49,479 nucleotides of DNA. It comes from Candidatus Micrarchaeota archaeon (lineage in GTDB: Archaea > Micrarchaeota > Micrarchaeia > Micrarchaeales > CABMGC01). Where the stretch lies: assembly GCA_021803945.1 (NCBI GenBank), contig JAJZKW010000006.1, positions 1 to 49,479 on the forward strand. Reading direction: 5' to 3'. The stretch's first letter is position 1. Each line of letters starts with the position of its first letter. The notes beneath the pieces were generated by a model. It did no database searches. It worked only from the letters and a program-made list of their open reading frames with translations, and had not been told where the DNA came from. Shown piece by piece: positions 1 through 30,172 of the stretch. Made by a program: the position numbers and the translations under genes.

Positions 1-72
1 TGGACTCGGCGGGATTCGAACCCGCAATCTCGTCGTTGCGAACAACGCGCGATACCGTTTCGCTACGAGCCC
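1..72 (-). tRNA. tRNA-Ala (anticodon CGC)
   Basis: Reverse complement folds as a 72-nt cloverleaf. Acceptor GGGCTCG/CGAGTCC with G3:U70 (alanine identity pair), D stem GCGA/TCGC, anticodon stem CGTTG/CGACG, loop TTCGCAA (anticodon CGC), T arm GCGGG-TTCGAAT-CCCGC. Discriminator A is window position 1, so 3' CCA status lies outside the window. Confidence 0.92.
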
Positions 73-105: not shown

Positions 106-129
106 CTTATGCATGTAATAAGTTCTACT

Positions 130-1503
130 ATGGAAAAGGCCAAAGAAGAGGCATCGCGAAAAATATTCAAAAGGATACTCTACGACATCAAACCCTCCGA
201 AGCAGAAATAAGAGAAACTACCCATAATGTCAACAAGCTGATAAGTCTCCTAAAGAAAACGGTCCCAACAGAAGTAGAGCTGATGGTTGCAGGCTCAATA
301 GCGAGAGGAACCAACCTTAAGGGAAATTCTGACATTGACTTATTTATGCTCTTCAACAAAAAACTCGGCAGGGATAAAGCCGTCAAGCTTGGGGTTGAAT
401 ACGGGGAGACAGTTGCAAGAAAGGAGAAGGGTAGATACGAGATAAAATACGCAGAGCATCCATACCTAAGACTATATCTAGATTCCATAGGCATGAAGGT
501 GGATCTTGTGCCTGCGCTCAAGATAGACAGTATAGAAGAGATGGGAACAACGGTTGACAGGACGCCTCTTCACAACGAATTCATAAACTCAAACCTAAAC
601 GCCAAGCAGAGGGATGACGTAAGGATACTGAAATACCTTCTCAGGGCGCACGGAATATACGGAGCTGAGGTGAAGACAAACGGCTTTTCAGGGTATCTGT
701 GCGAACTGCTTATTCACCACTACGGATCCATAATCGCGCTTCTTGAATCTGCATCGAAGTTTAAGCTGCCTATATTGATAGAGCCGAAGGAGAGGAAGGA
801 ATCCATCAGCAACGATGCAGTTAAGCGGTTCAATTCGCAGTTCATAGTAATAGATCCGGTTGACAGCAACAGGAATGTTGCCGCTGGGGTATCCCTGGAG
901 TCGCTCGGAAAGTTCGTCCTGGTTTCGCGCAAATTTATAGGGAAGCCCAGCATAGACCTATTCTACGGCCCAAAGTTCTCCTCGGGACAGGCAGGCGTCC
1001 TTGTAAGCAAGTTTGCGGAGTCATTGGGCTTAGACACCTTCATCATAACATGCAATATAAAGAATAAAAGCGAAGACATCATCTACCCGCAGCTTAGGAA
1101 GGTCAATCAGCAGATAGTCAGGCACCTAAGCCAGGGCGGCTTCAGCGTCTACCTGAACCTGCAGTTTATCCTCGGTAAGAAAGGCGTACTTTTCATCGCA
1201 GCGCCCAAGCAGAATGTGGGGTCTAGGGTGCTCAAGGGTCCCAGCGCTTTCATTCCCGGAGCCTCCCAGGATTTCATGAAAAAGCACAGAGGCGCACATG
1301 GATTCATGATGCGTGAATCAGAAATATACGCTTTAGAGAAGACAGCAATAACCTCGATATCAGAATCTCTAAGAAAGCTTCCGAAAGACCTGAAGGTTCA
1401 TAAAGATGTAGTCATCTCAGGCCAAAACATAATTGTAAACAAAATACCGAAGGAATATTCAGCAACCCTCTACTCAGAGCTGCAGAAGAAGATATCTATA
1501 TGA
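130..1503 (+). CDS. cca: CCA-adding enzyme (archaeal class I tRNA nucleotidyltransferase)
   Basis: ORF 109..1503. Pol-beta NTase signature AGSIARGTNLKGNSDIDLFMLF and typical archaeal CCA length and layout. The ATG at 130 (MEKAKEE...) is preferred over 109 because the only TATA-like box ends 4 nt before 109. Confidence 0.9.
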   Translation: MEKAKEEASRKIFKRILYDIKPSEAEIRETTHNVNKLISLLKKTVPTEVELMVAGSIARGTNLKGNSDIDLFMLFNKKLGRDKAVKLGVEYGETVARKEKGRYEIKYAEHPYLRLYLDSIGMKVDLVPALKIDSIEEMGTTVDRTPLHNEFINSNLNAKQRDDVRILKYLLRAHGIYGAEVKTNGFSGYLCELLIHHYGSIIALLESASKFKLPILIEPKERKESISNDAVKRFNSQFIVIDPVDSNRNVAAGVSLESLGKFVLVSRKFIGKPSIDLFYGPKFSSGQAGVLVSKFAESLGLDTFIITCNIKNKSEDIIYPQLRKVNQQIVRHLSQGGFSVYLNLQFILGKKGVLFIAAPKQNVGSRVLKGPSAFIPGASQDFMKKHRGAHGFMMRESEIYALEKTAITSISESLRKLPKDLKVHKDVVISGQNIIVNKIPKEYSATLYSELQKKISI

Positions 1504-4187: not shown

Positions 4188-4541
4188 ATGGATTTTAACG
4201 CCACCGCCGTAATCCTATTTATACTCTTTGCAATATTCGTCCCTGTATCAATGATCACGACATCGAAGATGCTCAGGGATAAGACGACAAGGAACCCGGT
4301 GAAAGACGCGTCGTACGAAAGCGCAGAGGCGAGCACAGGCAGCAGGATAACCATAATGGGCGAATATCTTCACTATTTCACGATGTTCATAATGTTCGAG
4401 ATCCTTGTTGCAGTGGTGATCGTATGGGCGCCTCTCGCAAGCTCAATGCAGTTCCTTCCAAGCGCAGCAATCCTCTCCCTCCTGGTCTTCGGCATGGCAT
4501 TCGAGGCGTTCATATTGCTCATTGCAAGACGGGGTGAATGA
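4188..4541 (+). CDS. nuoA: NADH-quinone oxidoreductase subunit A
   Basis: 117 aa, three hydrophobic helices, loop YESAE (YECG-like), first gene of the operon, stop abuts the nuoB ATG. Confidence 0.8.
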   Translation: MDFNATAVILFILFAIFVPVSMITTSKMLRDKTTRNPVKDASYESAEASTGSRITIMGEYLHYFTMFIMFEILVAVVIVWAPLASSMQFLPSAAILSLLVFGMAFEAFILLIARRGE

Positions 4542-5123
4542 ATGATGGAAGACCAGGCAGATGCAAGCAGTGAGGAATTTGCCAATGCCAGGAAGGAGAT
4601 GGACAAGCTTGTGTACGAGTCATTGAAGGGGAGGGAAGTCAAGCCGAACGCGCTCTTCGCCAAGCTTTCAGACCTCACAAGGAACCTGCCTCCGACAAAA
4701 GAGCTGGTAAACTGGGCCAGGGTAAATTCCCTGTGGCCCCTCCAGTTCGGGCTTGCGTGCTGCGCAATAGAGCTCATGGACTTCGGGTCTGCTAGGATAG
4801 ACGCCGAGAGAAAGGGGTACCTGCTGTTCAGGGGCACCCCGAGGCAGTGCGACGTGATGATAATAGCCGGCTGGGTCACGAAGTCGATGGTGCCGGAGAT
4901 AAAGAGGCTTTACGAGCAGATGTCCTCTCCAAGATACATCGTCGCCTTCGGCGAGTGCGCCACGTGCGGAGGGCCGTGGTGGGAGAGCTACAACATAATA
5001 AAGGGAATAGACGAGGTCCTTCCAGTAGACGTCTTCGTGGCGGGGTGCCCTCCAAGGCCCGAAAACCTTTTCGCCGCGCTGATCAAGCTGCAGAAGAAAG
5101 TAGGTGGTAATATTGAAGGCTGA
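4542..5123 (+). CDS. nuoB: NADH-quinone oxidoreductase subunit B
   Basis: WPLQFGLACCAIE, GECATCGGPW and AGCPPRPE (cluster N2 ligand motifs). Confidence 0.95.
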   Translation: MMEDQADASSEEFANARKEMDKLVYESLKGREVKPNALFAKLSDLTRNLPPTKELVNWARVNSLWPLQFGLACCAIELMDFGSARIDAERKGYLLFRGTPRQCDVMIIAGWVTKSMVPEIKRLYEQMSSPRYIVAFGECATCGGPWWESYNIIKGIDEVLPVDVFVAGCPPRPENLFAALIKLQKKVGGNIEG

Positions 5124-5490
5124 AAGGGATGGCCTGCCGGCCACGCTGAGCAGGATGAAATCCGCAGGGTTCGATTATCTGGTAAAGATAACTGCAGTAG
5201 ACTACGTCGACCATGTGGACGTCATATACCTGCTCCGTAACCTGGAACCAATAAAGGACGAAATCGTAGAGGTGACGCTGAGCACATCGGATCTCTGGCT
5301 CCCATCCGTCGAAAATGTGCACAAATCTGCAGACTGGTACGAGAGAGAGCTGTCAGAGATGTTCGGAATAGAGATAAGGGGCAGGAAGGCACCAAGACTG
5401 CTGCTTGAGAAATGGGACGGTACAGATCCGCCCCTGAGGAAGAGCTTCGCATGGGACGCCCCATACAAGACCAAGGGAGAAAAGGCATGA
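5104..5490 (+). CDS. nuoC: NADH-quinone oxidoreductase subunit C (short form)
   Basis: ADWYERELSEMFGIEIRG signature. GTG start overlapping the nuoB end; a TTG at 5113 is an alternative start. Confidence 0.85.
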   Translation: MVILKAERDGLPATLSRMKSAGFDYLVKITAVDYVDHVDVIYLLRNLEPIKDEIVEVTLSTSDLWLPSVENVHKSADWYERELSEMFGIEIRGRKAPRLLLEKWDGTDPPLRKSFAWDAPYKTKGEKA

Positions 5491-6581
5491 ACATAACAAG
5501 GATAAATGTAGGGCCAGTGCATCCAAGCACACACGGAGTTATAAGGCTGGTGGTAGACCTTGACGGCGACACCATAGTCAATGTCGAGCCGCATATAGGG
5601 TTCCTTCACAGAGGCGTTGAGAAACTTGCCGAGACGCGGATGTACATGCAGATACCTCCATACACCGAAAAGCTTGATTATGTGGCTCCTATGTCTTACG
5701 ATGAGGCATATGTCGCAACCGTAGAGGCCGCAATGGGCATCGAGCCAAGCGAGCCAGCGAAATATGCCAGGACGATACTTCTTGAACTCCAAAGGATAGC
5801 GAGCCACCTGCTCTTCCTGGGAACGCTGTGCAATGACATAGGGCAGATGTTCACGGTATTCATGTGGGCCTTCAAGGACAGGGACATGGTACTGGATCTG
5901 CTGCAGGAGGCTGCCGGATCAAGGATGTTCTATGTGAACATGAGGCTTGGGGGACTGAACCAGGATCTTCCTCCATCATTTGCCGAGCACGCCCTGAGCC
6001 TGATGGACTATATGGAGAAGAGGGTATTCGAGTACGAGAAGTACATAGAGAAGAATCCAATCTTCAATGAGAGGATGAAAGGTGTCGGCGTCCTGTCAAG
6101 GGACAAGGCCAAGGAGCTCGGAGTCACGGGACCTGTACTCAGGGCGTCAGGTCTCAATTACGATGTTAGGAAAGCCAATCCATACTACGTGTATGACAAG
6201 TTTCATTTCAATTCAAAGACCCTGCAGGACGGAGACAACTATTCAAGGTACAAGGTGAGGATGCTTGAGATGCAGGAGAGCATAAGGATAGTGAAGGCGG
6301 CTGTCAGGGCAATGCCTGAAGGGAGTGCAAAGGGGATGCCAGTAAAGCTCAGGAGCCCAGTGCCACCTAACCGGATATCTATAGTGAACAGGGAACTCCC
6401 AAGGGGAGAATGCCTCATGTACATGGTTGCAGATCCTCAGAAGCCTTACAGGCTGTCGATACGCTCCCCAAACTTCATAAACCTTGCAGCCATAGGCAGC
6501 CTGGCAAGAGGCGCGAGGTTTGCTGACCTATTCGCGATACTGGGCTCTCTGGACATTATAATGGGATGCGTGGATAGATAG
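5487..6581 (+). CDS. nuoD: NADH-quinone oxidoreductase subunit D
   Basis: MNITRINVGPVHPSTHGVIRL N-terminus and LGSLDIIMGCVDR C-terminus. ATG overlaps the nuoC stop (ATGA). Internal M26 of ORF 5412..6581. Confidence 0.95.
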   Translation: MNITRINVGPVHPSTHGVIRLVVDLDGDTIVNVEPHIGFLHRGVEKLAETRMYMQIPPYTEKLDYVAPMSYDEAYVATVEAAMGIEPSEPAKYARTILLELQRIASHLLFLGTLCNDIGQMFTVFMWAFKDRDMVLDLLQEAAGSRMFYVNMRLGGLNQDLPPSFAEHALSLMDYMEKRVFEYEKYIEKNPIFNERMKGVGVLSRDKAKELGVTGPVLRASGLNYDVRKANPYYVYDKFHFNSKTLQDGDNYSRYKVRMLEMQESIRIVKAAVRAMPEGSAKGMPVKLRSPVPPNRISIVNRELPRGECLMYMVADPQKPYRLSIRSPNFINLAAIGSLARGARFADLFAILGSLDIIMGCVDR

Positions 6582-6582
6582 G

Positions 6583-7599
6583 ATGGCACTGCAGACTGAT
6601 ATAGGTAACATTGCGAACATACCCTACTGGACAGGCGGAGACACTCTGCATCAGGTAATAGGGATAATAATATACATAATAATAGTGTCGATTATATTCT
6701 CCATATTCGGATACATGGTAGGCTGGCTTGAGAGGAAGCTCATAGCCAGGGCCCAGTACAGGCATGGCCCTACATATGTCGGCATGTGGGGACTGCTCCA
6801 GAATCTTGCCGACCTGATAAAACTGCTCTCAAAGGAGGACGTAATACCGGAGAATGCTTTCAGGCCTCTGTTTGCAGTGTCGCTACCCCTCCTCCTTGCT
6901 CTCTCGATCTTCATAGTGCTCCTGCTCCCGTATTCGCCAACTCTCCAGGCCACCAACCTCGGATTCGGGCTTCTGATAATCTTTACAATAGTCTCCTTCC
7001 TGCCTCTTCTCCTCTTCACCGCTGGCTTCTCAAGCGGAAACAAGTTCGCAGGCATCAGCGCGCAGAGGTCAATTCTGGTGCTCCTTAGTTACGAGCTTCC
7101 TGTACTGATAGTCGTGGCCTCAGTCGCAATGCTCGCAGGCGGCTACAGCCTTGATGGTATAATATCTTCGCAGGCAGCCCATTACTACTTCGGGTTGCTG
7201 ATGCCTATAGGTTTTGTAGTGTTCTTCATAGCGCTGCTCGCAGAGTTCGAGAGGCCTCCGTTCGACCTCAGGGAGGCCGATTCAGAGCTGATAGCCGGAT
7301 GGCTTACAGATGTGAGCGCTCCGTATTACGCCATTGCGCTCTTCCTGGATTATGCAAGGATGTTCCTCGGGAGCGTACTGGTATCAATATTATTCCTTGG
7401 CGGATGGCTGGGCCCCTCTTTCCTTCCTCCCCTGTTCTGGATACTCCTTAAGGCGTTCATAGTGTCCGTCTTCGTGATAGTGGTTAGGGCTACGGCATTC
7501 AGGATGAGGGTGGACCGCGTGCTTAGGTTCGGATGGCTCTGGCTTATACCGCTCTCATTAATAAATCTTGTAATGACATATATTGTGTTCGTAAGGTGA
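6583..7599 (+). CDS. nuoH: NADH-quinone oxidoreductase subunit H
   Basis: Polytopic. ERKLIARAQYRHGP and AEFERPPFDLREADSELIAGW motifs. Confidence 0.95.
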   Translation: MALQTDIGNIANIPYWTGGDTLHQVIGIIIYIIIVSIIFSIFGYMVGWLERKLIARAQYRHGPTYVGMWGLLQNLADLIKLLSKEDVIPENAFRPLFAVSLPLLLALSIFIVLLLPYSPTLQATNLGFGLLIIFTIVSFLPLLLFTAGFSSGNKFAGISAQRSILVLLSYELPVLIVVASVAMLAGGYSLDGIISSQAAHYYFGLLMPIGFVVFFIALLAEFERPPFDLREADSELIAGWLTDVSAPYYAIALFLDYARMFLGSVLVSILFLGGWLGPSFLPPLFWILLKAFIVSVFVIVVRATAFRMRVDRVLRFGWLWLIPLSLINLVMTYIVFVR

Positions 7600-7603
7600 A
7601 GAC

Positions 7604-7966
7604 ATGATAGGACCACTTGCAAAGACGACAAAGGTGATGGTCTCTGAAAAAAGCTACACCACCGAATTCCCAGAGCACAGGGAATCGCTGCCTGACAACT
7701 ACAGGGGGAAGCTCAGGCTGGACATGGACACCTGCATAAGCTGTTCGGCATGCGCGATAATCTGCCCAAACAAGACAATAACAATGGTAAACGTCATGAC
7801 AGAAAAGGGCGACAAGATAATGCCGCAGGTCGGGCACGAGAGATGCCTGTTCTGCGCGCTGTGCGAGGAGGTCTGCCCTCCAAAATGCCTCGTACTCACG
7901 AAAAACTACGATTATGAGGCCTACGACAAGAGAGAGCTTGTCACCAGGCCCGAAGAGCTAGAGTAG
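7604..7966 (+). CDS. nuoI: NADH-quinone oxidoreductase subunit I (2x[4Fe-4S] ferredoxin)
   Basis: CISCSACAIICP and CLFCALCEEVCP motifs. Confidence 0.9.
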   Translation: MIGPLAKTTKVMVSEKSYTTEFPEHRESLPDNYRGKLRLDMDTCISCSACAIICPNKTITMVNVMTEKGDKIMPQVGHERCLFCALCEEVCPPKCLVLTKNYDYEAYDKRELVTRPEELE

Positions 7967-7972
7967 ATAGAC

Positions 7973-8452
7973 ATGCTTGACCTATATGCCTTCTTTGCAA
8001 TCTCCGCCATAACCGTTGCATCATCCATATTGATCTTCGCAGCCAAGAGGCTGATCTATGCTGTAGCCGCGCTGGCTGCGGCATTCCTCGGCAGCGCGCT
8101 CCTCTTCTTCCTCCTCGGGCAGACTGTGATGGCGCTGCTGCAGCTCCTGGTCTTCGTAGGAGGCCTCTCAACCTACCTCATAGTCGCCGTATCCACTGAG
8201 GAGAAGGGCGCCAAACTGATATTCCTTCCGGCCTTCCTGGCAGTCGCAGCTGTAACTGCTGCTGGCCTAGGATACGTCATACTGGGCTACGTCCAGCCGA
8301 CAGGCGCCAATGCGGCATCGAGCTTCCTCGGCTCCGCTGCGATAGCGATGCAGGGCTCATATGCACTGTTCTATGTAATGGCAACGCTGCTGGCTGCAGT
8401 TTCAATAAGCGGGGTCATGATAATAAACAAATTCATAAGGTTGGTAGTATAA
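7973..8452 (+). CDS. nuoJ: NADH-quinone oxidoreductase subunit J
   Basis: 159-aa hydrophobic protein in the canonical position between nuoI and nuoK. Confidence 0.8.
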   Translation: MLDLYAFFAISAITVASSILIFAAKRLIYAVAALAAAFLGSALLFFLLGQTVMALLQLLVFVGGLSTYLIVAVSTEEKGAKLIFLPAFLAVAAVTAAGLGYVILGYVQPTGANAASSFLGSAAIAMQGSYALFYVMATLLAAVSISGVMIINKFIRLVV

Positions 8453-8760
8453 TGATAATGCTTGCATACCTGATTGCACTGAGCATCGCGCTCTTCGCCA
8501 TAGGGCTGGCAGGCATAGCAACGGACAGGCACCTTGTGGTGATAATGCTCGCCGTAGAGCTCATATTCGCAGCAAGCATGATCGCCCTTGTATCCTTCTT
8601 TTCATATCCTGGCAAAGCCAGCCCAGGCGCAGTGCTGATGATGTTCGCCATATTCACCGTAGCTGCGGCAGAGATAATAACAGTGATAACCTTCTACGTA
8701 TACATGAAGCGGGGAGGGATAGACTTCGACGTGACGAAGCTGTCAAAACTCAAGTGGTAA
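8452..8760 (+). CDS. nuoK: NADH-quinone oxidoreductase subunit K
   Basis: 102 aa, three helices with a membrane-embedded Glu (LAVELIFAA). 1-nt overlap with the nuoJ stop. Confidence 0.85.
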   Translation: MIMLAYLIALSIALFAIGLAGIATDRHLVVIMLAVELIFAASMIALVSFFSYPGKASPGAVLMMFAIFTVAAAEIITVITFYVYMKRGGIDFDVTKLSKLKW

Positions 8761-8762
8761 AC

Positions 8763-10550
8763 ATGATGGCAATACTGATTATATTCCCTTTGCTGGCTGC
8801 CATGGCCGGAATATCACTGCTCAAGGACTATTCAAAGGCAAAGTATGTCGCGATAGGCGGAGCTGTGGTCAGTGCGGTCCTCCTGCCGCTTGTAAGTTAC
8901 GGCTCAAATACCTTTTCATGGTTTGCCATAGGCAAATTAGTCATAAACCTAACCTTCTCCGTCACCCCGCTGAACCTCATGCTCCTTGCGCTTGTATCTG
9001 TCATAGCCATACTGGTTCTAGTATATTCGAGCGGATACATAAACTCGCCACTGGAGCAGAAGAGGTATTACATAGAGATCCTCGCGTTCCAGGCTGCGAT
9101 GTCGGTCTTCGCTGTGAGCGGCAATTTCATAGTGCTCTTCATTGCCTGGGAGTTCCTGAGCCTCACCAGCTACCTTCTGATAGGTTTCTGGAACAGGCAT
9201 GCTGCTGCCAACAGGGCCGCTCGAAGGGCACTGACGATTATCTTCATAGGCGACCTCGCACTCCTAGGATCTATAATTATTTTCTGGCATGTGTTCGGCA
9301 CATTCGGGTTTGCACAGATACTTTCTTCTGTCGCGTCTCAAACAGGAATAGATACTACAATAGCCGTACTGCTCCTTCTCACTGCAATATTCACGAAATC
9401 TGCGCAGTTCCCATTCCACGAGTGGCTAATAGACGCAATGGAAGGCCCTACTCCTGTCTCCGCGTTCCTGCATTCATCGACAATGGTAAAGGCGGGCGTG
9501 TTTGTCGTAATACTGCTTTATCCATTGTTCCTGATCTCTGGAATAAGGGCTATAATACTGGTATTCGGGTTGGCCACTGCCTTAATATCAACACTTGCAG
9601 CAACGCGCGAGATGCACATAAAGAAGGTCATAGCCTATTCGACGATACAGGAGCTCTCGATAATGCTCGTTGCAGTCAGCAGCGGAGCCGTGCTTGCTGC
9701 AATATACTTCTTCTTCGTGCAGAGCTTCTACAAGGCACTCTTGTTCTTCAGCGCGGGCGTGATAACCAAGTCGACAGGAAAGGAGAAACTGAACGAGATC
9801 TCAGGCCTCAGGTACAATAAGCTTGCCTACATCGCCACCATCTTCGGAGCCCTATCCCTTGCAGGGTTCATTCCATTTTCAGGGTTCTTCTCAAACGCCG
9901 AGGTGAGCACAGCGCTATACTCCAACTTCGCCGTCTATGCCATAATGTCAGGCATATCGATACTGACAAGCTTCTACATAATAAGGTGGCTCTCATACGG
10001 AGCAAAGGACACAAAGAACTCCGCCGTGCAGACAAGGTACATGGGCCTTCCAGGTAGCATGGTATATCCGATGGCTGCACTCGCTGTGCTTACTGTGGCA
10101 GCATCTGCCGCTTTCCTGTACGTGGGAGGATTCCTAAACTTCGGGGGATACCTTGCATACCTGCCAATCCAGGCAAGCGCGTACATAAGCATTACAGACG
10201 GCATCTTTTTCACAGTATTGATAGCAATAGGTGCAGTGCTCAGTTACAACGTCTATTATAGGAACTGCGTCAAGTCCGGCAGCAAGGCATTCGACAGGAT
10301 AATATACACGAGGCAGGCGATGGAATTCGGATACGATCTCGTATCAAGGGTGATGTACGGCCTTTCAGCAGGCATTGCCGAATTCGATTCCTACCTTAAT
10401 GAGGGTTTTGACAGGATAGGGAGAGTGACCGTGAGGTCGGGATACGGGATAAGGAGGTTCTCTGTCGGCAACATAAATTCATACGCGCTGATATTCATAA
10501 TAGGGGTGCTGGTCCTCTTCGTCTCCTTCTATTTCCTGGTGGTGCTATGA
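8763..10550 (+). CDS. nuoL: NADH-quinone oxidoreductase subunit L (antiporter-like, long form)
   Basis: IAWEFLSLTSYLLIGFW, FPFHEWLIDAMEGPTPVSAFLHSSTMVKAGVF. About 596 aa, consistent with a C-terminal lateral extension. First ATG after the nuoK stop. Confidence 0.9.
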   Translation: MMAILIIFPLLAAMAGISLLKDYSKAKYVAIGGAVVSAVLLPLVSYGSNTFSWFAIGKLVINLTFSVTPLNLMLLALVSVIAILVLVYSSGYINSPLEQKRYYIEILAFQAAMSVFAVSGNFIVLFIAWEFLSLTSYLLIGFWNRHAAANRAARRALTIIFIGDLALLGSIIIFWHVFGTFGFAQILSSVASQTGIDTTIAVLLLLTAIFTKSAQFPFHEWLIDAMEGPTPVSAFLHSSTMVKAGVFVVILLYPLFLISGIRAIILVFGLATALISTLAATREMHIKKVIAYSTIQELSIMLVAVSSGAVLAAIYFFFVQSFYKALLFFSAGVITKSTGKEKLNEISGLRYNKLAYIATIFGALSLAGFIPFSGFFSNAEVSTALYSNFAVYAIMSGISILTSFYIIRWLSYGAKDTKNSAVQTRYMGLPGSMVYPMAALAVLTVAASAAFLYVGGFLNFGGYLAYLPIQASAYISITDGIFFTVLIAIGAVLSYNVYYRNCVKSGSKAFDRIIYTRQAMEFGYDLVSRVMYGLSAGIAEFDSYLNEGFDRIGRVTVRSGYGIRRFSVGNINSYALIFIIGVLVLFVSFYFLVVL

Positions 10551-11935
10551 GCTCCATATACTTCTATCTCCTCTTCGTCCTCTCTTCCCTATTCGTGCTG
10601 TTGAACCTGGCAAGCAAGGCACTGGGCAGCAGGAGGAGAGAGCATCTTGCCATAAACGCAGTCATCCTAATCCTGATTCTCGTAGACCTCCTGTTCCTTC
10701 TCATGTCCGGCTATTCAGGTCTGTTCGCCGGGGTGTTCTCCGCTAATCCGTTCTCCCTGTTCATGGCTTCGATATTCACCGCAGGCCTGCTGCTGGTAAA
10801 CCTGATAGCCTTCAACTATTCAGAGAACTATGTGGACTTCGCGGTCATAGGCGCATTCGCACTCATAGGCATGTATGTCGTGTCGTCTTCCACATCTTTA
10901 ATAACGATATTCCTCGGCCTCGAGCTTGCGAGCATACCTATGGTCTTCGCAATACTCCTGTCAAAGAAGAGCATAGAGGCAGCGGCAAAGCTCTTCATAA
11001 TGGCGTCAATAGCCATAGCAGTGATATCATTCGCAATCGTCTTGGTATACGGTGCATCGAGCAGCTTCGCGCTGAGATCGTATTCGCAGGGCACCCTCAT
11101 AGCGTTTGCAGGCATACTCTTCATATCCGCCATTGGGTTTGAGGCGTCAATATTCCCGTTCAACGTCCTTATCCCTGACGTGTACTCGGGGTCTTCTGCA
11201 TACGTCACGGCGATGCTCGGAGGCATGAACAAGAAAGTGGGATTTGCTGCGCTCATACAAATACTAATACTGGTATTCATCGCAGACAAGCAGCTTTTCA
11301 TCATAGTTGCCATCCTATCCGTCCTGACAATGACTTACGGGAACATTGTAGCACTGATGCAGAAGAATTTGAAGAGGATGCTCGCTTATTCGTCGATCTC
11401 ACAGGCAGGATACATACTGATCGGAATAGCCGCTGCTACACCGCAGGGAATCTCGGCAAGCCTGTTCCAGATCTTCTCTCACATGTTTCTATTTATAGGT
11501 CTGATGGCCATAGTCGCGTTGCTGGAGAAGAGGAACAGAGCAGGCATAGACGACTTGATAGGGCTCAGGTCTGAAAACAGCTATCTTGCCATTGCACTTG
11601 CCATTTTCATGCTGTCCCTGCTGGGGCTACCATTCACTACCGGATTCATAGGGAAGCTCCTGCTCTTCCTAAGCGCAATAAATGCGAACCTTGTATGGCT
11701 TGCGATAATAGGGATAATAAACAGCGTAATCTCCATATTCTATTACATCAGGGCGATATCTGCCGCATACACCGAGAAGGAAGGAGGAAGGCAGATAAGG
11801 ACGGATAAGACCATCGCTGCGGTAGTGTTCATATGCCTATTCATAACAATAGCATTCGGAATCTATCCGCAGCCGATAATAGGCCTAACTAATAATGCAG
11901 CTGCATTCCTCTTTCATGCAGCCCAGCATGCATAA
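10547..11935 (+). CDS. nuoN: NADH-quinone oxidoreductase subunit N (antiporter-like)
   Basis: FLGLELASIPM and RMLAYSSISQAGYILIG fit the NuoN pattern better than NuoM (WE..L.P). ATGA overlap with the nuoL stop. Last gene of the operon. Confidence 0.8.
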   Translation: MSSIYFYLLFVLSSLFVLLNLASKALGSRRREHLAINAVILILILVDLLFLLMSGYSGLFAGVFSANPFSLFMASIFTAGLLLVNLIAFNYSENYVDFAVIGAFALIGMYVVSSSTSLITIFLGLELASIPMVFAILLSKKSIEAAAKLFIMASIAIAVISFAIVLVYGASSSFALRSYSQGTLIAFAGILFISAIGFEASIFPFNVLIPDVYSGSSAYVTAMLGGMNKKVGFAALIQILILVFIADKQLFIIVAILSVLTMTYGNIVALMQKNLKRMLAYSSISQAGYILIGIAAATPQGISASLFQIFSHMFLFIGLMAIVALLEKRNRAGIDDLIGLRSENSYLAIALAIFMLSLLGLPFTTGFIGKLLLFLSAINANLVWLAIIGIINSVISIFYYIRAISAAYTEKEGGRQIRTDKTIAAVVFICLFITIAFGIYPQPIIGLTNNAAAFLFHAAQHA

Positions 11936-13053: not shown

Positions 13054-13650
13054 TCACTTCTTTGCCTCTGCTGCAGGTGCAGCTGCGCCTCCTCCACCTC
13101 CTGCAGTCTTTGCAGGAGCCTTGGCCGCTTTCTGCGCCTCTTCGGCCGCCTTCTTTGTGACCCCGACAGTCGCGCCTGTCCTTCCTGTGGATCTTGTCTT
13201 CTGTCCGCGCACCTTCTGTCCCCACCTGTGCCTGAATCCCCTCCACGACTGTATCTTTATATCATTATCTATGTCCTGTTTCACTTTGACTATAAGGTCT
13301 GTCCCAACAAGGTGGAGGTTCTCTCCTGTCTCTCTGTCGTTCCTCCTGTTGAGCAGGTATAGCGGGATCTTCGCCTGCTTAGGGTCCTTGAGCAGCCCTT
13401 CTATCTTTTCTATTCCTTCCTCGTCAAGCGACCCTATCTTTGTGCTTTTTGGTATGTTGTACATGTCCCTTATCGATATAGAAAGAGCGCTGGCAAGGTT
13501 GTATCCCACGCCTTTTATCTGCATTAGCGCATCCTGTATGTTCAGGTCGCCGTCTATGTCCCTTCCCGCGATCCTGACTATGCTCTGTGCCTGGGCCTTC
13601 TGCTTTTCCTGATGTTCCTTTGGTTTTTGTTCCTCTTCCTTAGCCATCAA
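13054..13650 (-). CDS. rps13: 30S ribosomal protein uS13 with low-complexity N- and C-terminal tails
   Basis: IVRIAGRDIDGDL...IKGVGYNLA...WRGFRHRWGQKVRGQKTRSTGR core. 198 aa versus about 150 typical. C-tail KKAAEEAQKAAKAPAKTAGGGGGAAAPAAEAKK. Confidence 0.95.
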   Translation of the reverse strand: MMAKEEEQKPKEHQEKQKAQAQSIVRIAGRDIDGDLNIQDALMQIKGVGYNLASALSISIRDMYNIPKSTKIGSLDEEGIEKIEGLLKDPKQAKIPLYLLNRRNDRETGENLHLVGTDLIVKVKQDIDNDIKIQSWRGFRHRWGQKVRGQKTRSTGRTGATVGVTKKAAEEAQKAAKAPAKTAGGGGGAAAPAAEAKK

Positions 13651-13825
13651 TGCACCGAATAATCATAATACATTTTAAAGACGTTAAATTTTGCCGACCT
13701 CGCGAAGGCAAACCCATGTTTTAAGGCATGGAATGTTATATTATACCTGTAATAAAGCTTTTTAAGCTTTCTAAACCTCCGGCATGCATGCAGTTCAATT
13801 GCAGAAGAAAGCGCCAAGGTTGGGA

Positions 13826-13858
13826 TTTCCATAGGTTTTGGATCAGCCCAAAGCCCAA
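13826..13858 (-). other. tRNA intron 2 (non-canonical, T-loop position 59/60, 33 nt)
   Basis: Exon TTCA (54-57) pairs with intron TGGA as a 4-bp central helix. Both bulges are AA|T. Outer helix is the T stem TTGGG/CCCAA; inner helix is TGGG/CCTA plus hairpin TTTGG-GCTGAT-CCAAA. The exact junction is ambiguous by 1-3 nt because AAAT occurs at both ends. Confidence 0.65.
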
Positions 13859-13892
13859 TTTGAACCCAAACGGCTCGTGAGAGCCATACGCT

Positions 13893-13905
13893 TGCTGGAA
13901 AAGAT
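13893..13905 (-). other. tRNA intron 1 (canonical position 37/38, 13 nt ATCTTTTCCAGCA)
   Basis: Intron CCAG pairs with exon CTGG (positions 32-35) as a 4-bp central helix flanked by 3-nt bulges AA|A and CA|A. The distal side is only a short loop (bulge-helix-loop-like). Confidence 0.7.
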
Positions 13906-13969
13906 TTCCAGGCGTACGCGTTACCAGATTCTGCCACCTTGGCACATTATAGCTATTGATCATAGCGCA

Positions 13970-13978
13970 TATTTAAAT
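13970..13978 (-). promoter_or_regulatory. TATA-like box (ATTTAAATA on minus strand) upstream of tRNA-Ser
   Basis: Lies 27-35 nt upstream of the tRNA 5' end at 13943. Confidence 0.35.
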
Positions 13979-13993
13979 CATGCTCTTGGCCGA

Positions 13994-14854
13994 TCAGAAG
14001 AATGCAAGAAGAAGCGCTCCGGCCACTGCCACTATGAGTCCGCCTGCCTGAAGCAGCGTAAGCCTGTCAAGGTATATCTTCCTGGACGCTATTGCTACTA
14101 CTATAGGAGTAAGCGCGATTATGCTTGCGCCCTGCGCCAGCTCCTTGAACAGTATCAGGTATCCAAAGATGAGGCTGCCTGCCCCTATCGCAACGCCTAC
14201 TGCCACAGAGCTCTCCAGTCTCTCCATTCCGCCTTTATGTCCCTGAACCGGCTTTTTTTCAGGCAGTGCAAATGACGCTACTGCCCCGGTAAGGGTTGCA
14301 AATAGCGCAGCGATAAGGCCCTCCAGCAGGTACGTGCCAGAGTTCAGTATAGAGTACGCCATGAGCGTCCATAGCACAGCCCAGCAGATAAATCCAAGCA
14401 GCGCGTAGACAAGCTTCATGTTTATGCGCAGCTTCTCAGTGAGTATCACCATGAACGACCCCAGGAATATAAGTATTATGCCTGCATCCTGCCCTGCTCT
14501 GAGGCTGAATATCTCTCCAAGTATGAAAGCCCCAAGTATGACCAGCCATGCCTTGAAGAATTCCGACAGCGCGAACGTGTTAGTTGTCTGCTCTGTTGCA
14601 AGGGATTTGTAAAGAAGAAGGAATCCAAGCCCATAGAATATGCCTGCCGCAACTGCAAGCGATGCGGAATAGGAGGTCATGTGCTGCGTTCCAGATATCG
14701 CTATCAGGAGAAGGAATGGCACCATGCTGGCCGCTCCGACCACCACAACAGCGCGCCTGTACCCGTATTTTACAACCACCTTCTTGCCGAATATGTCTGC
14801 TACAGAATAAAATATCAGGACAACAGCCGCCAATACGACTCCTGCGCTTATCAT
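13994..14854 (-). CDS. EamA/DMT-superfamily transporter
   Basis: 286 aa, about 10 hydrophobic helices arranged as two similar halves. N-terminal ...VADIFGKKVV... typical of the EamA family. Confidence 0.75.
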   Translation of the reverse strand: MISAGVVLAAVVLIFYSVADIFGKKVVVKYGYRRAVVVVGAASMVPFLLLIAISGTQHMTSYSASLAVAAGIFYGLGFLLLYKSLATEQTTNTFALSEFFKAWLVILGAFILGEIFSLRAGQDAGIILIFLGSFMVILTEKLRINMKLVYALLGFICWAVLWTLMAYSILNSGTYLLEGLIAALFATLTGAVASFALPEKKPVQGHKGGMERLESSVAVGVAIGAGSLIFGYLILFKELAQGASIIALTPIVVAIASRKIYLDRLTLLQAGGLIVAVAGALLLAFF

Positions 14855-15558: not shown

Positions 15559-16167
15559 ATGGCAAAAAGGATAGCGCTGTGCATTACCGGAGCTTCAGGG
15601 GCGGCCTTTGCATACAGATTCCTCGAAGAGGCGTCCAAGGCGAACGGCGTAGAGACGCATCTTGTCATAAGCAAGTCCGGAGGCATGGTGATAAAGCAGG
15701 AGCTGGGCATAAGCGTGCAAGACGTGCAGGGCCTGGCAGACTTCAGCTACGATGAGCACAACTTCATGGCTCCGATAGCGAGCGGATCCTTCAGGCTTTG
15801 CGGGACGCTTGTCTCTCCATGCTCCATGAAGACGCTGTCAGGGATAGCGCATGCGTATGAGAGCAACCTGATAATCCGGTGCGCTTCTATAGCCCTCAAG
15901 GAGAAGTGGAAGCTCGTCCTGATGCCAAGGGAGACCCCATTAAGCACCATACACATAAAGAACATGCTCGAGGCCTCGAGGGCAGGCGCGATAATAATGC
16001 CGCCCATGCCCCAATTCTACTTCAAGCCTAAGGACATCAGCAGCCTTATAGACATGACTGTCGGGAAGATGCTCTCCATCTTCGATATCGAGAGCAGCCT
16101 GAGCAGGGAATGGGGCTCTGACAAGGCAGCGCTGAAGGAGTTCGAGCCTTCCGACGGAATATACTGA
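15559..16167 (+). CDS. ubiX: flavin prenyltransferase UbiX (prenyl-FMN synthase)
   Basis: RIALCITGASGAAFAYRFLE, SPCSMKTLSGIAHAY and LMPRETPLS motifs. Confidence 0.9.
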   Translation: MAKRIALCITGASGAAFAYRFLEEASKANGVETHLVISKSGGMVIKQELGISVQDVQGLADFSYDEHNFMAPIASGSFRLCGTLVSPCSMKTLSGIAHAYESNLIIRCASIALKEKWKLVLMPRETPLSTIHIKNMLEASRAGAIIMPPMPQFYFKPKDISSLIDMTVGKMLSIFDIESSLSREWGSDKAALKEFEPSDGIY

Positions 16168-16176
16168 GGCGAGCCT

Positions 16177-17580
16177 ATGATAAAGGACCTGCGGGGCTAT
16201 CTGGAATACCTTTCAAAGTCCGGCATGCTCGGCACTTCAAAGTCCAGGGTCAGCACGGACCTCGAGATAGCCGCAATAACGGATAAGGAGAACAGGGAAC
16301 GCAGGTATGAGGGGAGGACGCTCCTCTTCGAAAATGTCGATGGCTATGACATCCCCGTGGCAACTAACCTGATGGCGTCCCTCAAGGTGCTTAAAGCCCT
16401 TTTTGCCGATTTTCAGATAGCAGAATTCATAAGCAATCTTTATTACGCGAGGGACCTGTCGCTTGTGAAGGGCGCCAAGGCGATCATGGATTCAAAGCCG
16501 AAAGTGGTGGGCAGGCCCAAGGGCTACAGGAAGATAGGCAGCCTCGACGAGCTCCCGATACTGAGGCTCTGGCCAAAGGATGCAGGCAAGTTCATAACCC
16601 TCCCCCTCGTCATAACAGAGAGCCCGAAGGACGGCACAAAGAACGTAGGGGTATACCGCATGCAGGTCTTCGATGGCGCGACTACAGGAATGCATTGGCA
16701 GTCGCAGAAAGGGGGGGCAGTGCACATGCTCGAGGCGAAAGAGATGGGAAAGACGCTCAACGTATCTGTCGCAATAGGGACGGACCCGTTCAACGTGGTT
16801 TCAGCGGTAGCCCCTCTTCCGCACGGCATAAACGAGTTCGCGTTTGCCGGCATGGCCCGCAAGTCAAGGACAGAGCTCTTCGACTGCGGAGAGTATCCGG
16901 CAGTCCCTTCAAACTCAGAGATAATAATAAACGGATATGTTGATCCTTCAGAGTCTAGGGAAGAGGGCCCGTTCGGGGACCACACCGGATACTATTCCAT
17001 AAAGGAGGCCACGAACGTATTCCATGTAACGAGCATATACTCCAGGGAGAAGCCGATATATCCTGCAAGCGTAGTAGGGCTGCGGTGGAACGAGGACTGC
17101 GTAGCAGCCCAATTCCTCATGGATTACCTGAAGCCCCTTATAAAGCTGATGAACGGGAGCATAAGCGACATATACCTGCCTCCCGAAGGCGTATTCACAA
17201 ACATGTGCTTCATCTCGGTAAAGAAGAGGTTCCCCGGGGACGCAAAGAAGGCAATGTTCTCTGTGCTTGGGTTAGGGCAGCTCTCGGTCACGAAGATCGT
17301 AGTCGCATTCGACGAAGATGTCGACATAAGGGACCTAAGCAGCGTAATGTGGGCGATGTCAACGCGCATAGACCCTGACAGGGACGTGCAGATACTGAAA
17401 GGAGTGCCGACAGACACCCTGGACCACACATCCAACCTTTCCGGATACGGGTCAAAGATGCTCATAGACGCAACTAAGAAGTCCGAAGGAGAGGGATACA
17501 GGAGGAGATGGCCCGAAACCATAACCCCCGAAATGAGTATATTAAAGGAGGTGGAGAAGAAATGGAGAGAGATACGCTGA
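16177..17580 (+). CDS. ubiD: UbiD-family (prFMN-dependent) aromatic acid decarboxylase
   Basis: GVYRMQVFD, WQSQKGGAVH, GPFGDHTGYY and LGQLSVTKIVVAFDEDVDI. Confidence 0.9.
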   Translation: MIKDLRGYLEYLSKSGMLGTSKSRVSTDLEIAAITDKENRERRYEGRTLLFENVDGYDIPVATNLMASLKVLKALFADFQIAEFISNLYYARDLSLVKGAKAIMDSKPKVVGRPKGYRKIGSLDELPILRLWPKDAGKFITLPLVITESPKDGTKNVGVYRMQVFDGATTGMHWQSQKGGAVHMLEAKEMGKTLNVSVAIGTDPFNVVSAVAPLPHGINEFAFAGMARKSRTELFDCGEYPAVPSNSEIIINGYVDPSESREEGPFGDHTGYYSIKEATNVFHVTSIYSREKPIYPASVVGLRWNEDCVAAQFLMDYLKPLIKLMNGSISDIYLPPEGVFTNMCFISVKKRFPGDAKKAMFSVLGLGQLSVTKIVVAFDEDVDIRDLSSVMWAMSTRIDPDRDVQILKGVPTDTLDHTSNLSGYGSKMLIDATKKSEGEGYRRRWPETITPEMSILKEVEKKWREIR

Positions 17581-18410
17581 TCAATGTCGCAAGCGAGCTT
17601 CTTGCCCCCCAGTTCATACTATTCAATCTCTCATTCGTCTACATAGGCATGCTTTTTTCTCCTGTTCAGTCCTCCAGGCTGCTTATCCTGATAACCCTGG
17701 CGTTCATATCAGCTAGGTCGGCCGGGGTCATAATGAACAGGTATATAGGCAGGCCCTTCGACCTGAAGAATCCGAAGAAAGCGGGCATGCCGAGCATGAG
17801 GATATCCAGGACAACCCTCATTCTCCTCTTTGCCGCGCTCTCTGCAGTATTCGTATTCTCAGCCTTCCTGCTGAATACAATGGCCCTGGCGCTCTCCCCC
17901 GTGGTATTGGTCATGCTCGTCATCGACCCGTTTTCAAAAAGATACTCCAGCAAGAGGCATTACGCCCTCGGGCTGATACAGGGATTTGACGTGATGGGCG
18001 GATACATAGGTGCAGCAGGGGCATTCCCAACAAACATAGCCCTCTACCTATTGATGTTCGCCATAATCTTCATAGGTGGGGGATTCGACGCGATATACTC
18101 TATAACTCATGTGAGATCTGACATGCGGAACGGCCTAAAGACGTTTGCGTCGACAAAAGGCGTCAAGAAGGCGCTCGCATATTCCCTCTATTCCCATGTA
18201 ACTGCCGTTTTGTTCATCATGGCATTTGCACTGGTATCGCGGAACCTGATAATACTGGCAGGCTCAGTGGCCGCTTCTGCAGTCCTTCTTGCGCAACACT
18301 CGGACATCAACCTGGACTCTGACAGGGAAATATTCGCAAGGGTGGTAAAATACAACACCGCCGTCGCCATAATACTGGCATCCTCAGTCGCCACGGCATT
18401 TTTCGCATGA
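17562..18410 (+). CDS. ubiA: UbiA-superfamily prenyltransferase homolog with degenerate first Asp-rich motif
   Basis: ARSAGVIMNRYIGRPFD aligns to E. coli UbiA ARSAGCVVNDYADRKFD. Second motif region FDAIYSITHVRSDMRNGLKTFA. About 8-9 helices. ATG overlaps the ubiD 3' end by 19 nt. Confidence 0.8.
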   Translation: MERDTLINVASELLAPQFILFNLSFVYIGMLFSPVQSSRLLILITLAFISARSAGVIMNRYIGRPFDLKNPKKAGMPSMRISRTTLILLFAALSAVFVFSAFLLNTMALALSPVVLVMLVIDPFSKRYSSKRHYALGLIQGFDVMGGYIGAAGAFPTNIALYLLMFAIIFIGGGFDAIYSITHVRSDMRNGLKTFASTKGVKKALAYSLYSHVTAVLFIMAFALVSRNLIILAGSVAASAVLLAQHSDINLDSDREIFARVVKYNTAVAIILASSVATAFFA

Positions 18411-18419
18411 GGCAAGATC

Positions 18420-19106
18420 ATGAGCAAAAAGATAAAGGACACATTCACGCGCATACACAGGCATTACGACTTCTTCAACCACCTATTCAGCATGATGGCT
18501 GACATAGAGTGGAGGAGAGACGCAGCTATGGAGACGATAATGCCAAAGAGATCATACGCCGTCCTCGATGTCGCCACAGGCACCGGTGATCTGGCAATAG
18601 CGATAAGCAGGGCAGCGCGCTCAAGCGGAAGGATTGCACGCATCACAGCCACTGACTTCAACACGCACATGCTATCACATGCAAAGGAGAAGGCAGTAAG
18701 GATGGGGATCAAGGACATAAAGTTCGAGGAGGGGGACGCCCTGCGCACCGGCTACCCGGATTCAACATTCGACGTGGTGACAAGCGGGTTTGCGCTGAGG
18801 AACTTCGACAGTCTAGACAAGTTCGCGGCAGAGGCAAGCAGGGTGACAAAGAGGGGCGGAAGGATAGTGATGCTGGACATGGCGAAGCCGGACAGGACAC
18901 CGCAGTTCATGAAGGCTTATTTCAAGGTCCTCGAAGCCGTAGGATCGCTTGTGGCAAAGAACGCGTACAGATGGCTTACATACAGCATAATGAAGTTCGA
19001 CAAGGAGAAGGCGGCAGGCATATTCAGGAGGCACGGATTTACAGACGTCAAGATAACGAACCTGAGGTACGGCGTCGCATTCATGATTACAGGCACGAAA
19101 GGATAA
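18420..19106 (+). CDS. ubiE: demethylmenaquinone/ubiquinone C-methyltransferase (UbiE/MenG family)
   Basis: YDFFNHLFS...WRR N-terminal signature, SAM motif VLDVATGTGDLA, and GGRIVMLD. Confidence 0.85.
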   Translation: MSKKIKDTFTRIHRHYDFFNHLFSMMADIEWRRDAAMETIMPKRSYAVLDVATGTGDLAIAISRAARSSGRIARITATDFNTHMLSHAKEKAVRMGIKDIKFEEGDALRTGYPDSTFDVVTSGFALRNFDSLDKFAAEASRVTKRGGRIVMLDMAKPDRTPQFMKAYFKVLEAVGSLVAKNAYRWLTYSIMKFDKEKAAGIFRRHGFTDVKITNLRYGVAFMITGTKG

Positions 19107-20406: not shown

Positions 20407-21285
20407 TTACAAGCGCACTTTTATCAGTTCGGCATAGCTGGAGAATATCTTCCCAGGCATCGACCTGGCCATCCTTCTCTCAGCCCTTTCGACATAATCG
20501 TTGTTCATCTGCACTGCCTTCATCAATGCAGAGTACCTGCCAACCCTATAATCCTTTTCCAGGCTTGCAACGACGTTCGGTATGAACTTGCCTGCTCCCC
20601 TGCCGTTCGATGCATTTATGAAATCAAATATATCGTCCCTTATCTGGAATGCCATCCCCAGGTCCTTTCCGGCCAGGTACATTGCCTCATAGTTTCTGTG
20701 CGAACTGCAGACAGCTGCCGCATTCGCGCATGATCCAATCAGTGAGGCGCTCTTAAGCGAAGCCATTCTTGTATAATCTTTCAGGTTAGGGATCAGCCTT
20801 CTCTTCTGATAGTAATAGTCCAGTGCCTCGCCCGCGCACATGTCCATGCTGGCCCGGCTTATCGACTTGAGCATGCGTTCCCCGTATTTTGCAGATATGG
20901 AAACGGCCAAGGATGTCAATGCATCGCCTGCAAGTATTGCCATATGCTCCCCATACCTCGCTTGGACAGAGAACGATCCCCTCCTTCTAGTATCTCCGTC
21001 TATTATATCATCGTGTATCAGCGATGCCGTATGGATGAGTTCGGCAGAGACTGCAAGGTCAACGAACCTGTGCGGATCGCGGCCTATGGCATAGGTGCCC
21101 ATAAGGACCAGCGTAGGCCTGAATAGCTTGCTCTTCCTCCCAAGCAATGCGACTGACGGGCCGGACAATGCGGTGTCAACGAAATCCGAAGACCTGAAAG
21201 ATGACAGCCTTTCAGACACTTCGCACAGGCTCTCAATCACACTGCCAGGAAGCCGCATTCTCCTATTGCCCTCTACAAGTCCCAT
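20407..21285 (-). CDS. trans-polyprenyl diphosphate synthase (short- or medium-chain; chain length not determinable)
   Basis: First Asp-rich motif LIHDDIIDGDTRRRG and second Asp-rich motif FQIRDDIFD. Confidence 0.9.
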   Translation of the reverse strand: MGLVEGNRRMRLPGSVIESLCEVSERLSSFRSSDFVDTALSGPSVALLGRKSKLFRPTLVLMGTYAIGRDPHRFVDLAVSAELIHTASLIHDDIIDGDTRRRGSFSVQARYGEHMAILAGDALTSLAVSISAKYGERMLKSISRASMDMCAGEALDYYYQKRRLIPNLKDYTRMASLKSASLIGSCANAAAVCSSHRNYEAMYLAGKDLGMAFQIRDDIFDFINASNGRGAGKFIPNVVASLEKDYRVGRYSALMKAVQMNNDYVERAERRMARSMPGKIFSSYAELIKVRL

Positions 21286-30101: not shown

Positions 30102-30172
30102 GGGCTCGTAGTCCAGCGGTAAGACGCTACCCTCACACGGTAGAGATCGGAGTTCGACTCTCCGCGGGCCCA
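30102..30172 (+). tRNA. tRNA-Val (anticodon CAC), no encoded CCA
   Basis: GGGCTCG-TA-GTCC-AGCGGTAA-GAC-G-CTACC-CTCACAC-GGTAG-AGAT-CGGAG-TTCGACT-CTCCG-CGGGCCC-A. 7-bp acceptor (one G.U), anticodon loop with U33-CAC-A37, T-loop TTCGA. Followed by TATCAA rather than CCA. Confidence 0.9.

Follow-up and report, generated by a model that had tools for sequence, protein, structure and literature searches.

[quoted passage not shown] The interval lies in the window, as we call the whole 49,479-nt stretch of DNA that was analysed. Such a gene had been proposed from the letters of the window alone (the sequence-only reading), and the comparative data now go further than that proposal, with the two-intron architecture conserved and covarying across about 50 species.

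The gene and its surroundings

When the window sequence was read again on the minus strand from 13943 to 13812 it was identical to that set out in the sequence-only reading, and the segment lengths given there add up (38 + 13 + 34 + 33 + 14 = 132 nt, or 86 nt when spliced). The segments and the neighbouring features are listed in Table 1. The lineage had been guessed as ARMAN/Micrarchaeota, and independent evidence confirms it: the best uS13 homologues are from Ca. Micrarchaeaceae/Micrarchaeota, and the 80 related loci discussed below are essentially all from Micrarchaeota-type MAGs.

Table 1. Segments of the tRNA-Ser(GGA) gene and other features of the window
Feature	Position	Strand	Details
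pre-tRNA-Ser(GGA) coding region	13812..13943	-	132 nt; CCA not encoded; spliced product called by ARAGORN; 56 orthologues found
Exon 1	13906..13943	-	38 nt; acceptor 5' strand, D arm, anticodon stem 5' strand, loop nt 32-37 (CUGGAA)
Intron 1	13893..13905	-	13 nt, AUCUUUUCCAGCA; canonical position 37/38; relaxed hBH/BHL motif
Exon 2	13859..13892	-	34 nt; A38, anticodon stem 3' strand, 5-bp variable arm, T-stem 5' strand, T-loop 54-59 (UUCAAA)
Intron 2	13826..13858	-	33 nt; non-canonical T-loop position 59/60; strict hBHBh'
Exon 3	13812..13825	-	14 nt; U60, T-stem 3' strand, acceptor 3' strand, discriminator G73
TATA-like box TTTAAATA	13970..13977	-	27-34 nt upstream of tRNA 5' end; directly after EamA stop codon
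uS13	13054..13650	-	first gene of uS13-uS4-uS11 operon; syntenic anchor of the tRNA
uS13-uS4-uS11	13650-11985	-	flanks tRNA gene on one side
EamA-family transporter gene	13994-14854	-	flanks tRNA gene on other side
Archaeal class-I CCA-adding enzyme gene	109-1503	+	directly beside tRNA-Ala(CGC)
tRNA-Ala(CGC)	1-72	-	at very edge of window; found by Rfam, missed by default ARAGORN
tRNA-Val(CAC)	30102-30172	+	re-found in deletion scan

The TATA-like TTTAAATA is the probable promoter of the tRNA gene, and nearly all of the relatives have an A/T box at about -27 to -36 that is comparable to it.

The spacer from the tRNA gene to uS13 (13651-13811) is 161 nt in the window and includes a further TATA-like sequence, TTTAAAAT, at 13679-13672, which places it about 25-32 nt ahead of the ATG of uS13 (13647). 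Also between the two genes is an A/T-rich imperfect hairpin at 13717-13777, in a region that hardly differs in L083, a relative at strain level. The match of the hairpin to mir-753 in Rfam, at 28.8 bits as against a gathering score of 62, is almost certainly due to chance and was rejected. In many relatives, including L013, L016, L018, L026, L036, L044 and many other loci, the spacing is short, with the uS13 start codon and the GGTG before it only about 10-20 nt past the tRNA 3' end. In these the tRNA-Ser(GGA) may be co-transcribed as a processed 5' leader of the ribosomal-protein operon.

Elsewhere in the window there is a complex-I-like Nuo operon (subunits A, B, C, D, H, I, J, K and L/M/N-type), and also a cluster for a UbiX-type flavoprotein (PF02441), UbiD, UbiA and UbiE, with a polyprenyl synthase gene. 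The Nuo and Ubi/quinone genes span 4188-11935, 15559-19106 and 20407-21285, and amount to a gene set for respiration and quinones in an archaeon of DPANN type.

The spliced product

The sequence-only reading had predicted that removal of 13 nt and 33 nt would leave an 86-nt class-II tRNA, and when given the spliced product ARAGORN does call a tRNA-Ser(gga) of 86 nt. The 7-bp acceptor stem, the loop CUGGAAA, the 5-bp variable arm, the discriminator G and the T arm TTGGG/TTCAAAT/CCCAA that had been described are all in the ARAGORN structure, and the anticodon stem has 5 bp and is extended by a G26·U44 pair. The product has the features of a class-II tRNA-Ser, namely a variable arm with a 5-bp stem and 4-nt loop, G73, and GGA between U33 and A37. 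G73 and the long variable arm are Ser identity elements. None of the 57 sequences compared departs from anticodon GGA, A38, U60 or G73.

The D stem had been pointed to as the weak part of the structure, and rightly so: in the window only G10-C25 and C11-G24 are paired, with a mismatch at A12·C23. Those two pairs are invariant among the relatives and GG is present in the D loop. At position 12 many of the relatives have G, which restores the third pair, and A12 is common to the others.

The product folds at -34.6 kcal/mol (z = -3.0). For the precursor the value is -52.7 kcal/mol, which is better than that of all 200 shuffles (z = -4.46).

Detection of the gene and control for chance

The unspliced locus is not called by ARAGORN, either by default or with anticodon-loop introns allowed (-i), and RF00005 of Rfam has no match at the locus, at the gathering score for the whole window or at E<=10 for a 361-nt local region. 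The only Rfam matches near the locus are to mir-753, WLE3 and Cyano-2, all of them below threshold and attributed to chance. The locus had been described as an annotation trap, and in the case of ARAGORN and Rfam this is so, as both miss the unspliced gene. The archaeal mode of tRNAscan-SE 2.0 includes a default screen for BHB introns, with BHB models that were trained on Crenarchaeota/Euryarchaeota and Thaumarchaeota (PMC8450103).

In a blind scan every single deletion of 10-60 nt was made in all 17 intergenic gaps of the window (3.4 kb), and the products were given to ARAGORN with canonical introns allowed. A new tRNA was found at the tRNA-Ser locus only, and only if the deletion removed 31-35 nt and began at 13823-13832. 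No false positive came from fourteen other gaps, which yielded no tRNA at all, and from the remaining two only the known tRNA-Ala(CGC) and tRNA-Val(CAC) were recovered. The scan thus found no further hidden tRNAs with one or two introns in the other intergenic gaps of the window. The scan, together with the presence of the same architecture in 56 related genomes, puts the architecture of this locus far beyond chance.

Orthologues in related genomes

Species-representative genomes were scanned with a uS13 alignment, giving 80 loci (L001-L080), and 56 of these have an orthologous tRNA-Ser(GGA) upstream of uS13 and on the same strand. The distance to uS13 is 350 nt or less in about two thirds of the 56 orthologues, and in the others it reaches up to 2.6 kb. 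No tRNA-Ser(GGA) was found in the fetched flanks of 23 of the 80 loci, and the synteny of tRNA-Ser(GGA) and uS13 is common but not universal. Both insertions are present in 51 of the 56. The other five (L031, L032, L048, L067 and L078) have the 37/38 intron alone and a plain T-loop, UUCAAAU, and they score 41-47 bits on RF00005 (gathering score 29) with the canonical intron left in.

The surroundings of the gene vary. In the closest species-level relatives (L001, L002, L004, L005 and L008) the tRNA-Ser gene is 1.6-2.1 kb upstream of uS13, as against 161 nt in the window, with the tRNA at about 880-1420 and uS13 at 3001, and there is an insertion or rearrangement between the two genes. A tRNA-Lys(UUU) gene is found alongside that for tRNA-Ser upstream of uS13 in L036 and L041, and tRNA-Ile(UAU) is upstream of uS13 in L064 and L080, where no tRNA-Ser(GGA) was found.

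The exons are nearly invariant across the orthologues, with exon 1 84-97% identical to that of relatives. There are 38 distinct spliced products, which together fold into a class-II cloverleaf (RNAalifold) with none of its 24 pairs broken in any sequence, and with double compensatory changes at 8 pairs in the acceptor, anticodon, variable and T stems. L083, a strain-level relative with uS13 97% identical, has a contig that ends 20 nt into the tRNA, and 4 of 112 positions differ. Of the four changes three fall within introns, where they affect one base of a bulge, one of a hairpin loop and a pair that goes from G-C to G·U, and the fourth is in an unpaired base beside the variable arm. In L085, the relative that comes next (uS13 81% identical), there is no tRNA beside uS13.

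It could be argued from the silence of the standard detectors and from the weak D stem that this is a decaying tRNA pseudogene, no longer used, that has accumulated two insertions. However, the exons have remained near-invariant over about 56 species while the inserts were free to diverge, the stems have compensatory changes with no pair ever broken, the inserts keep the exact BHB register and the promoter-like box is conserved. Such conservation over a phylum-scale radiation is unlike the behaviour of pseudogenes, and for that reason we consider a pseudogene to be effectively refuted, and its probability to be very slight.

The anticodon-loop intron

The BHB that the sequence-only reading had drawn for intron 1 was checked base by base and is as described, with a CUGG/CCAG helix and bulges AA↓A and CA↓A (the arrow marks the splice site). 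The CCAG of the intron pairs with exon bases C32-G35 in a relaxed hBH/BHL motif that lacks an inner helix. The MFE fold of the precursor in the window contains the CA↓A bulge as well as the anticodon stem and the CUGG/CCAG helix, with pair probabilities of 0.79-1.0. The 5' splice site is a point against, as in the MFE fold it is taken up by three weak A-U pairs and there is no bulge; these three pairs are not conserved in the relatives.

Among the relatives the intron is 11-19 nt long, and the BHB geometry is held in essentially all of the 57 anticodon-loop introns. The anticodon BHB is 90.7% paired, and C32-G, G34-C and G35-C are kept in 35-36 of the 36 distinct sequences. Variation is free at the two bases that the intron contributes to the 3' bulge. 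U33 faces a mismatched base in 27 of the 36, which for the relatives counts against the motif; in the window there is a U-A pair.

With intron 2 alone removed, ARAGORN (-i) reads the gene as tRNA-Ala(ggc) and puts a 13-nt intron at what it numbers as 36/37; the same call is made for L078. The gene would then be for tRNA-Ala(GGC), with the anticodon-loop intron two bases further 5', between G35 and A36. That register ignores the BHB, and its third anticodon base would be the second-to-last base of the intron, where the relatives differ (C, T, G or A), whereas the BHB register yields GGA and the invariant A38 in all 57 sequences. The class-II body, long variable arm and G73 fit Ser and not Ala, and L031 and L048 are called as Ser(gga) by ARAGORN itself. 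We find a tRNA-Ala(GGC) hardly credible, and treat the gene as one for tRNA-Ser(GGA).

The T-loop intron

The base-by-base check also upheld the BHB proposed for intron 2, with its UUCA/UGGA helix and two AA↓U bulges. The T stem is the outer helix, and UGGG/CCUA with a UUUGG/CCAAA hairpin forms the inner helix, making this a strict hBHBh' motif.

Fifty-two sequences, including that of the window, have a T-loop intron, whose length is anywhere from 13 to 43 nt and whose sequence is all but impossible to align. The central helix with exon U54-A57 has four of four pairs in 51 of the 52, with UGAA, UGGA or UGAG as the intron partner; without exception the bulges are AA↓N and NA↓U60. In extracts of fixed register the T-loop BHB is 95.9% paired and its central helix 99.4%, and if the 3' partners are slid by one column pairing is at most 58%. 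All three inner-helix pairs covary, with double changes among GC, UA, AU and CG, and the covariation score is 0.334 as against 0.138 ± 0.014 in column shuffles, none of 500 shuffles reaching 0.334. The pattern points to selection on the T-loop intron acting on structure, that is a strict hBHBh' at 59/60, and not on sequence.

The mature sequence would be unchanged if the cut sites of intron 2 were to slide by up to 3 bases 5' or by 1 base 3'. We place the intron at 59/60 because the BHB geometry fixes the position of the cut, and 60/61 is ruled out since U60 is invariant while the first base of the intron varies.

There are two points against from the folding of naked RNA. The UUCA/UGGA helix has a probability of only about 13% in the ensemble, and the explicit double-BHB conformer is at -45.4 kcal/mol as against -52.7 for the MFE. 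The low probability of the helix is a mild caveat, as a low value is to be expected when a helix is this short, has a bulge on either side and is normally clamped by the enzyme. One could nonetheless suppose that only the 37/38 intron is removed and that the mature RNA keeps the 33-nt insert of the T-loop, as an expansion segment, and the marginal flanking 4-bp helix and the stable inner hairpin of intron 2 (pair probabilities >0.9) could be cited for this. However, an insert at 59/60 would break the elbow formed by the T-loop and D-loop, which all elongator tRNAs need. Furthermore the exact 3-4-3 BHB geometry is present in 51 of 52 sequences despite the range in length from 13 to 43 nt, five relatives lack the insert and have the plain loop UUCAAAU, and a 59/60 intron from the same phylum has been cleaved in vitro (PMC3239211). 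Retention of the insert is in our view very improbable, and we prefer the removal of both introns.

Proposed splicing and the endonuclease

We propose that tRNA-Ser(GGA) is transcribed from its own TATA-type promoter to give a precursor with a 132-nt body, in which four bases of each intron pair with the adjacent exon loop, CCAG with C32-G35 and UGGA with U54-A57. Because of this four-base pairing the splice sites fall after the second base of 3-nt bulges, with the two bulges 4 bp apart, and this 3-4-3 geometry is that cut by the archaeal splicing endonuclease. Ligation of the exons, which in archaea is RtcB-type, would then give the 86-nt class-II tRNA, with the CCA end presumably added post-transcriptionally; the presence of a gene for a CCA-adding enzyme in the window counts in favour of the proposal. 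The locus is probably transcribed, and by analogy with the systems discussed below cleavage is likely to be by a broad-specificity (ε2 or αβ-type) EndA, followed by ligation. It is also probably the only tRNA-Ser(GGA) gene of the cell, the sequence covered being 49 kb.

In PMC5829648 the cutting of non-canonical introns is reported for (αβ)2 and ε2 enzymes only. A Pfam scan of about 50 window ORFs found no PF01974 or PF02778 domain, and hence no EndA, and there is no RtcB encoded in the 49-kb window. The sequences of the three ARMAN-2 EndA units were taken from a PDB sequence search (4fz2), and used in tblastn they had no match in the window or in L001-L080. As there is no EndA domain in the window, the type of endonuclease cannot be read from it. 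An ε2-type EndA is nonetheless probable for this genome, given the literature on ARMAN-1/2 (PMC3239211, PMC4033280) and the ε-type genes on L081 and L082, two unassigned metagenomic contigs.

In the protein database the ARMAN-2 catalytic unit has homologues that are mostly proteins of 165-218 aa, and it was through such ARMAN-2-like units that L081 and L082 were found. In these two contigs the catalytic unit is 60-73% identical to that of ARMAN-2, and the three ARMAN-2 units map colinearly, at 3446-4615 in L081 and 3379-4555 in L082, with changes of frame between units. The gene is called in both as a small N-terminal-domain ORF and a catalytic ORF of 184-204 aa, and one of the frame breaks resembles the loss of a G from a G-run. 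For L081 and L082 only, the colinear units and frameshift-broken gene calls led us to reject a stand-alone "short EndA" as opposed to ε2. At least L081 and L082 therefore have three-unit EndA genes of the ε type, and the short protein in the database is, in these two cases, an artefact of frameshift or gene calling.

History of the T-loop intron

A neighbour-joining tree of uS13, which is rough and indicative only, being based on a single protein alignment of 172 columns, has carriers of the T-loop intron on all major branches, and the intron-less state in three small separate groups. This suggests one old gain of the T-loop intron and a few losses. A more specific reading would be a single ancient gain near the base of the sampled Micrarchaeota, with loss on about three occasions and retention for a function, and this we think unlikely. 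Possible roles for the 59/60 intron are gating of tRNA maturation where the tRNA adjoins the uS13 start (10-20 nt), acting as a guide for T-loop modification, and shielding of the gene against integrating elements.

The lengths of the T-loop introns are bimodal, at about 13-22 nt and about 28-43 nt. A distal hairpin of the CUUUUG…CAAAAG type is common to many of the long introns, that in the window (13826-13858) being CUUUGG…CCAAAA; the comparison covers the window and L002, L008, L025, L040, L053, L054, L068, L074 and L075. This suggests that the T-loop introns all go back to one long form, from which the short ones were derived when the distal hairpin was lost.

The apparent long stability of a T-loop intron in one orthologous gene bears on how such introns persist beside broad-specificity endonucleases. 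The set of 57 sequences is in effect a natural mutagenesis series for a 59/60 BHB intron, with a strict junction and a free interior.

Implications for annotation

Annotation based on ARAGORN or Rfam would score this genome as having no tRNA-Ser(GGA), and the same probably applies to most Micrarchaeota MAGs. There is also the possibility of a mis-call by ARAGORN as tRNA-Ala(GGC), once the T-loop intron alone has been removed in silico. In either case, with tRNA-Ser(GGA) missed or mis-called, inferences on completeness and codon usage would be distorted for DPANN archaea.

Comparison with known systems

The two-intron tRNA-Ser(GGA) gene is of a kind already known from ARMAN-2 and the Thermoproteales. 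In ARMAN-2 (Ca. Micrarchaeum acidiphilum) 56% of the tRNA genes are disrupted (Fujishima et al. 2011, PMC3239211; PMC4033280). Among them pre-tRNA-Cys(GCA) has a 13-nt 59/60 intron and pre-tRNA-Pro(GGG) has introns at 53/54 and 59/60, and the three-unit ε2 EndA cleaves both canonical and 59/60 introns in vitro (PMC3239211). The gene described here is in the same phylum as these disrupted tRNAs and has its non-canonical intron at the same T-loop site, but it differs from the Cys and Pro examples in isoacceptor, Ser(GGA), and in the combination of sites, 37/38 with 59/60. It is also the 59/60 intron that is strict hBHBh' in our case and the canonical one that is relaxed, whereas the published Cys gene of ARMAN-2 has a relaxed 59/60 intron. 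An ARMAN-2 tRNA-Ser(GGA) with the same structure may already be in the supplementary tRNA table of PMC3239211. In the literature that was searched we found no account of phylum-wide conservation of this two-intron architecture for Ser(GGA).

With regard to the Thermoproteales, the multi-intron tRNAs of Sugahara et al. (2007/2008; cited in PMC4033280 and PMC8450103) likewise have BHB introns at non-canonical sites. There are up to three such introns per tRNA, together with a broad-specificity endonuclease that processes them, and it took BHB-aware software to find these tRNAs. The Thermoproteales are in another phylum and have an (αβ)2 enzyme, in contrast to ε2 in ARMAN-1/2. Their introns bear signs of recent transposition between tRNAs, whereas here the intron is stable in position in one orthologous gene over the whole sampled radiation.

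Intron 1 resembles the canonical 37/38 BHB intron of Marck & Grosjean (2003; cited in PMC8450103) in its site, in the pairing with anticodon-loop bases 32-35 and in having both cuts after the second base of a 3-nt bulge. It differs from it in having no h' (hBH/BHL), and in the U33·Y mismatch in the central helix of most of the relatives.

The known mechanism of splicing is unchanged by the finding of this tRNA-Ser(GGA) gene. What is added is the comparative series, which documents long-term retention of a 59/60 intron together with strict geometry at its junction.
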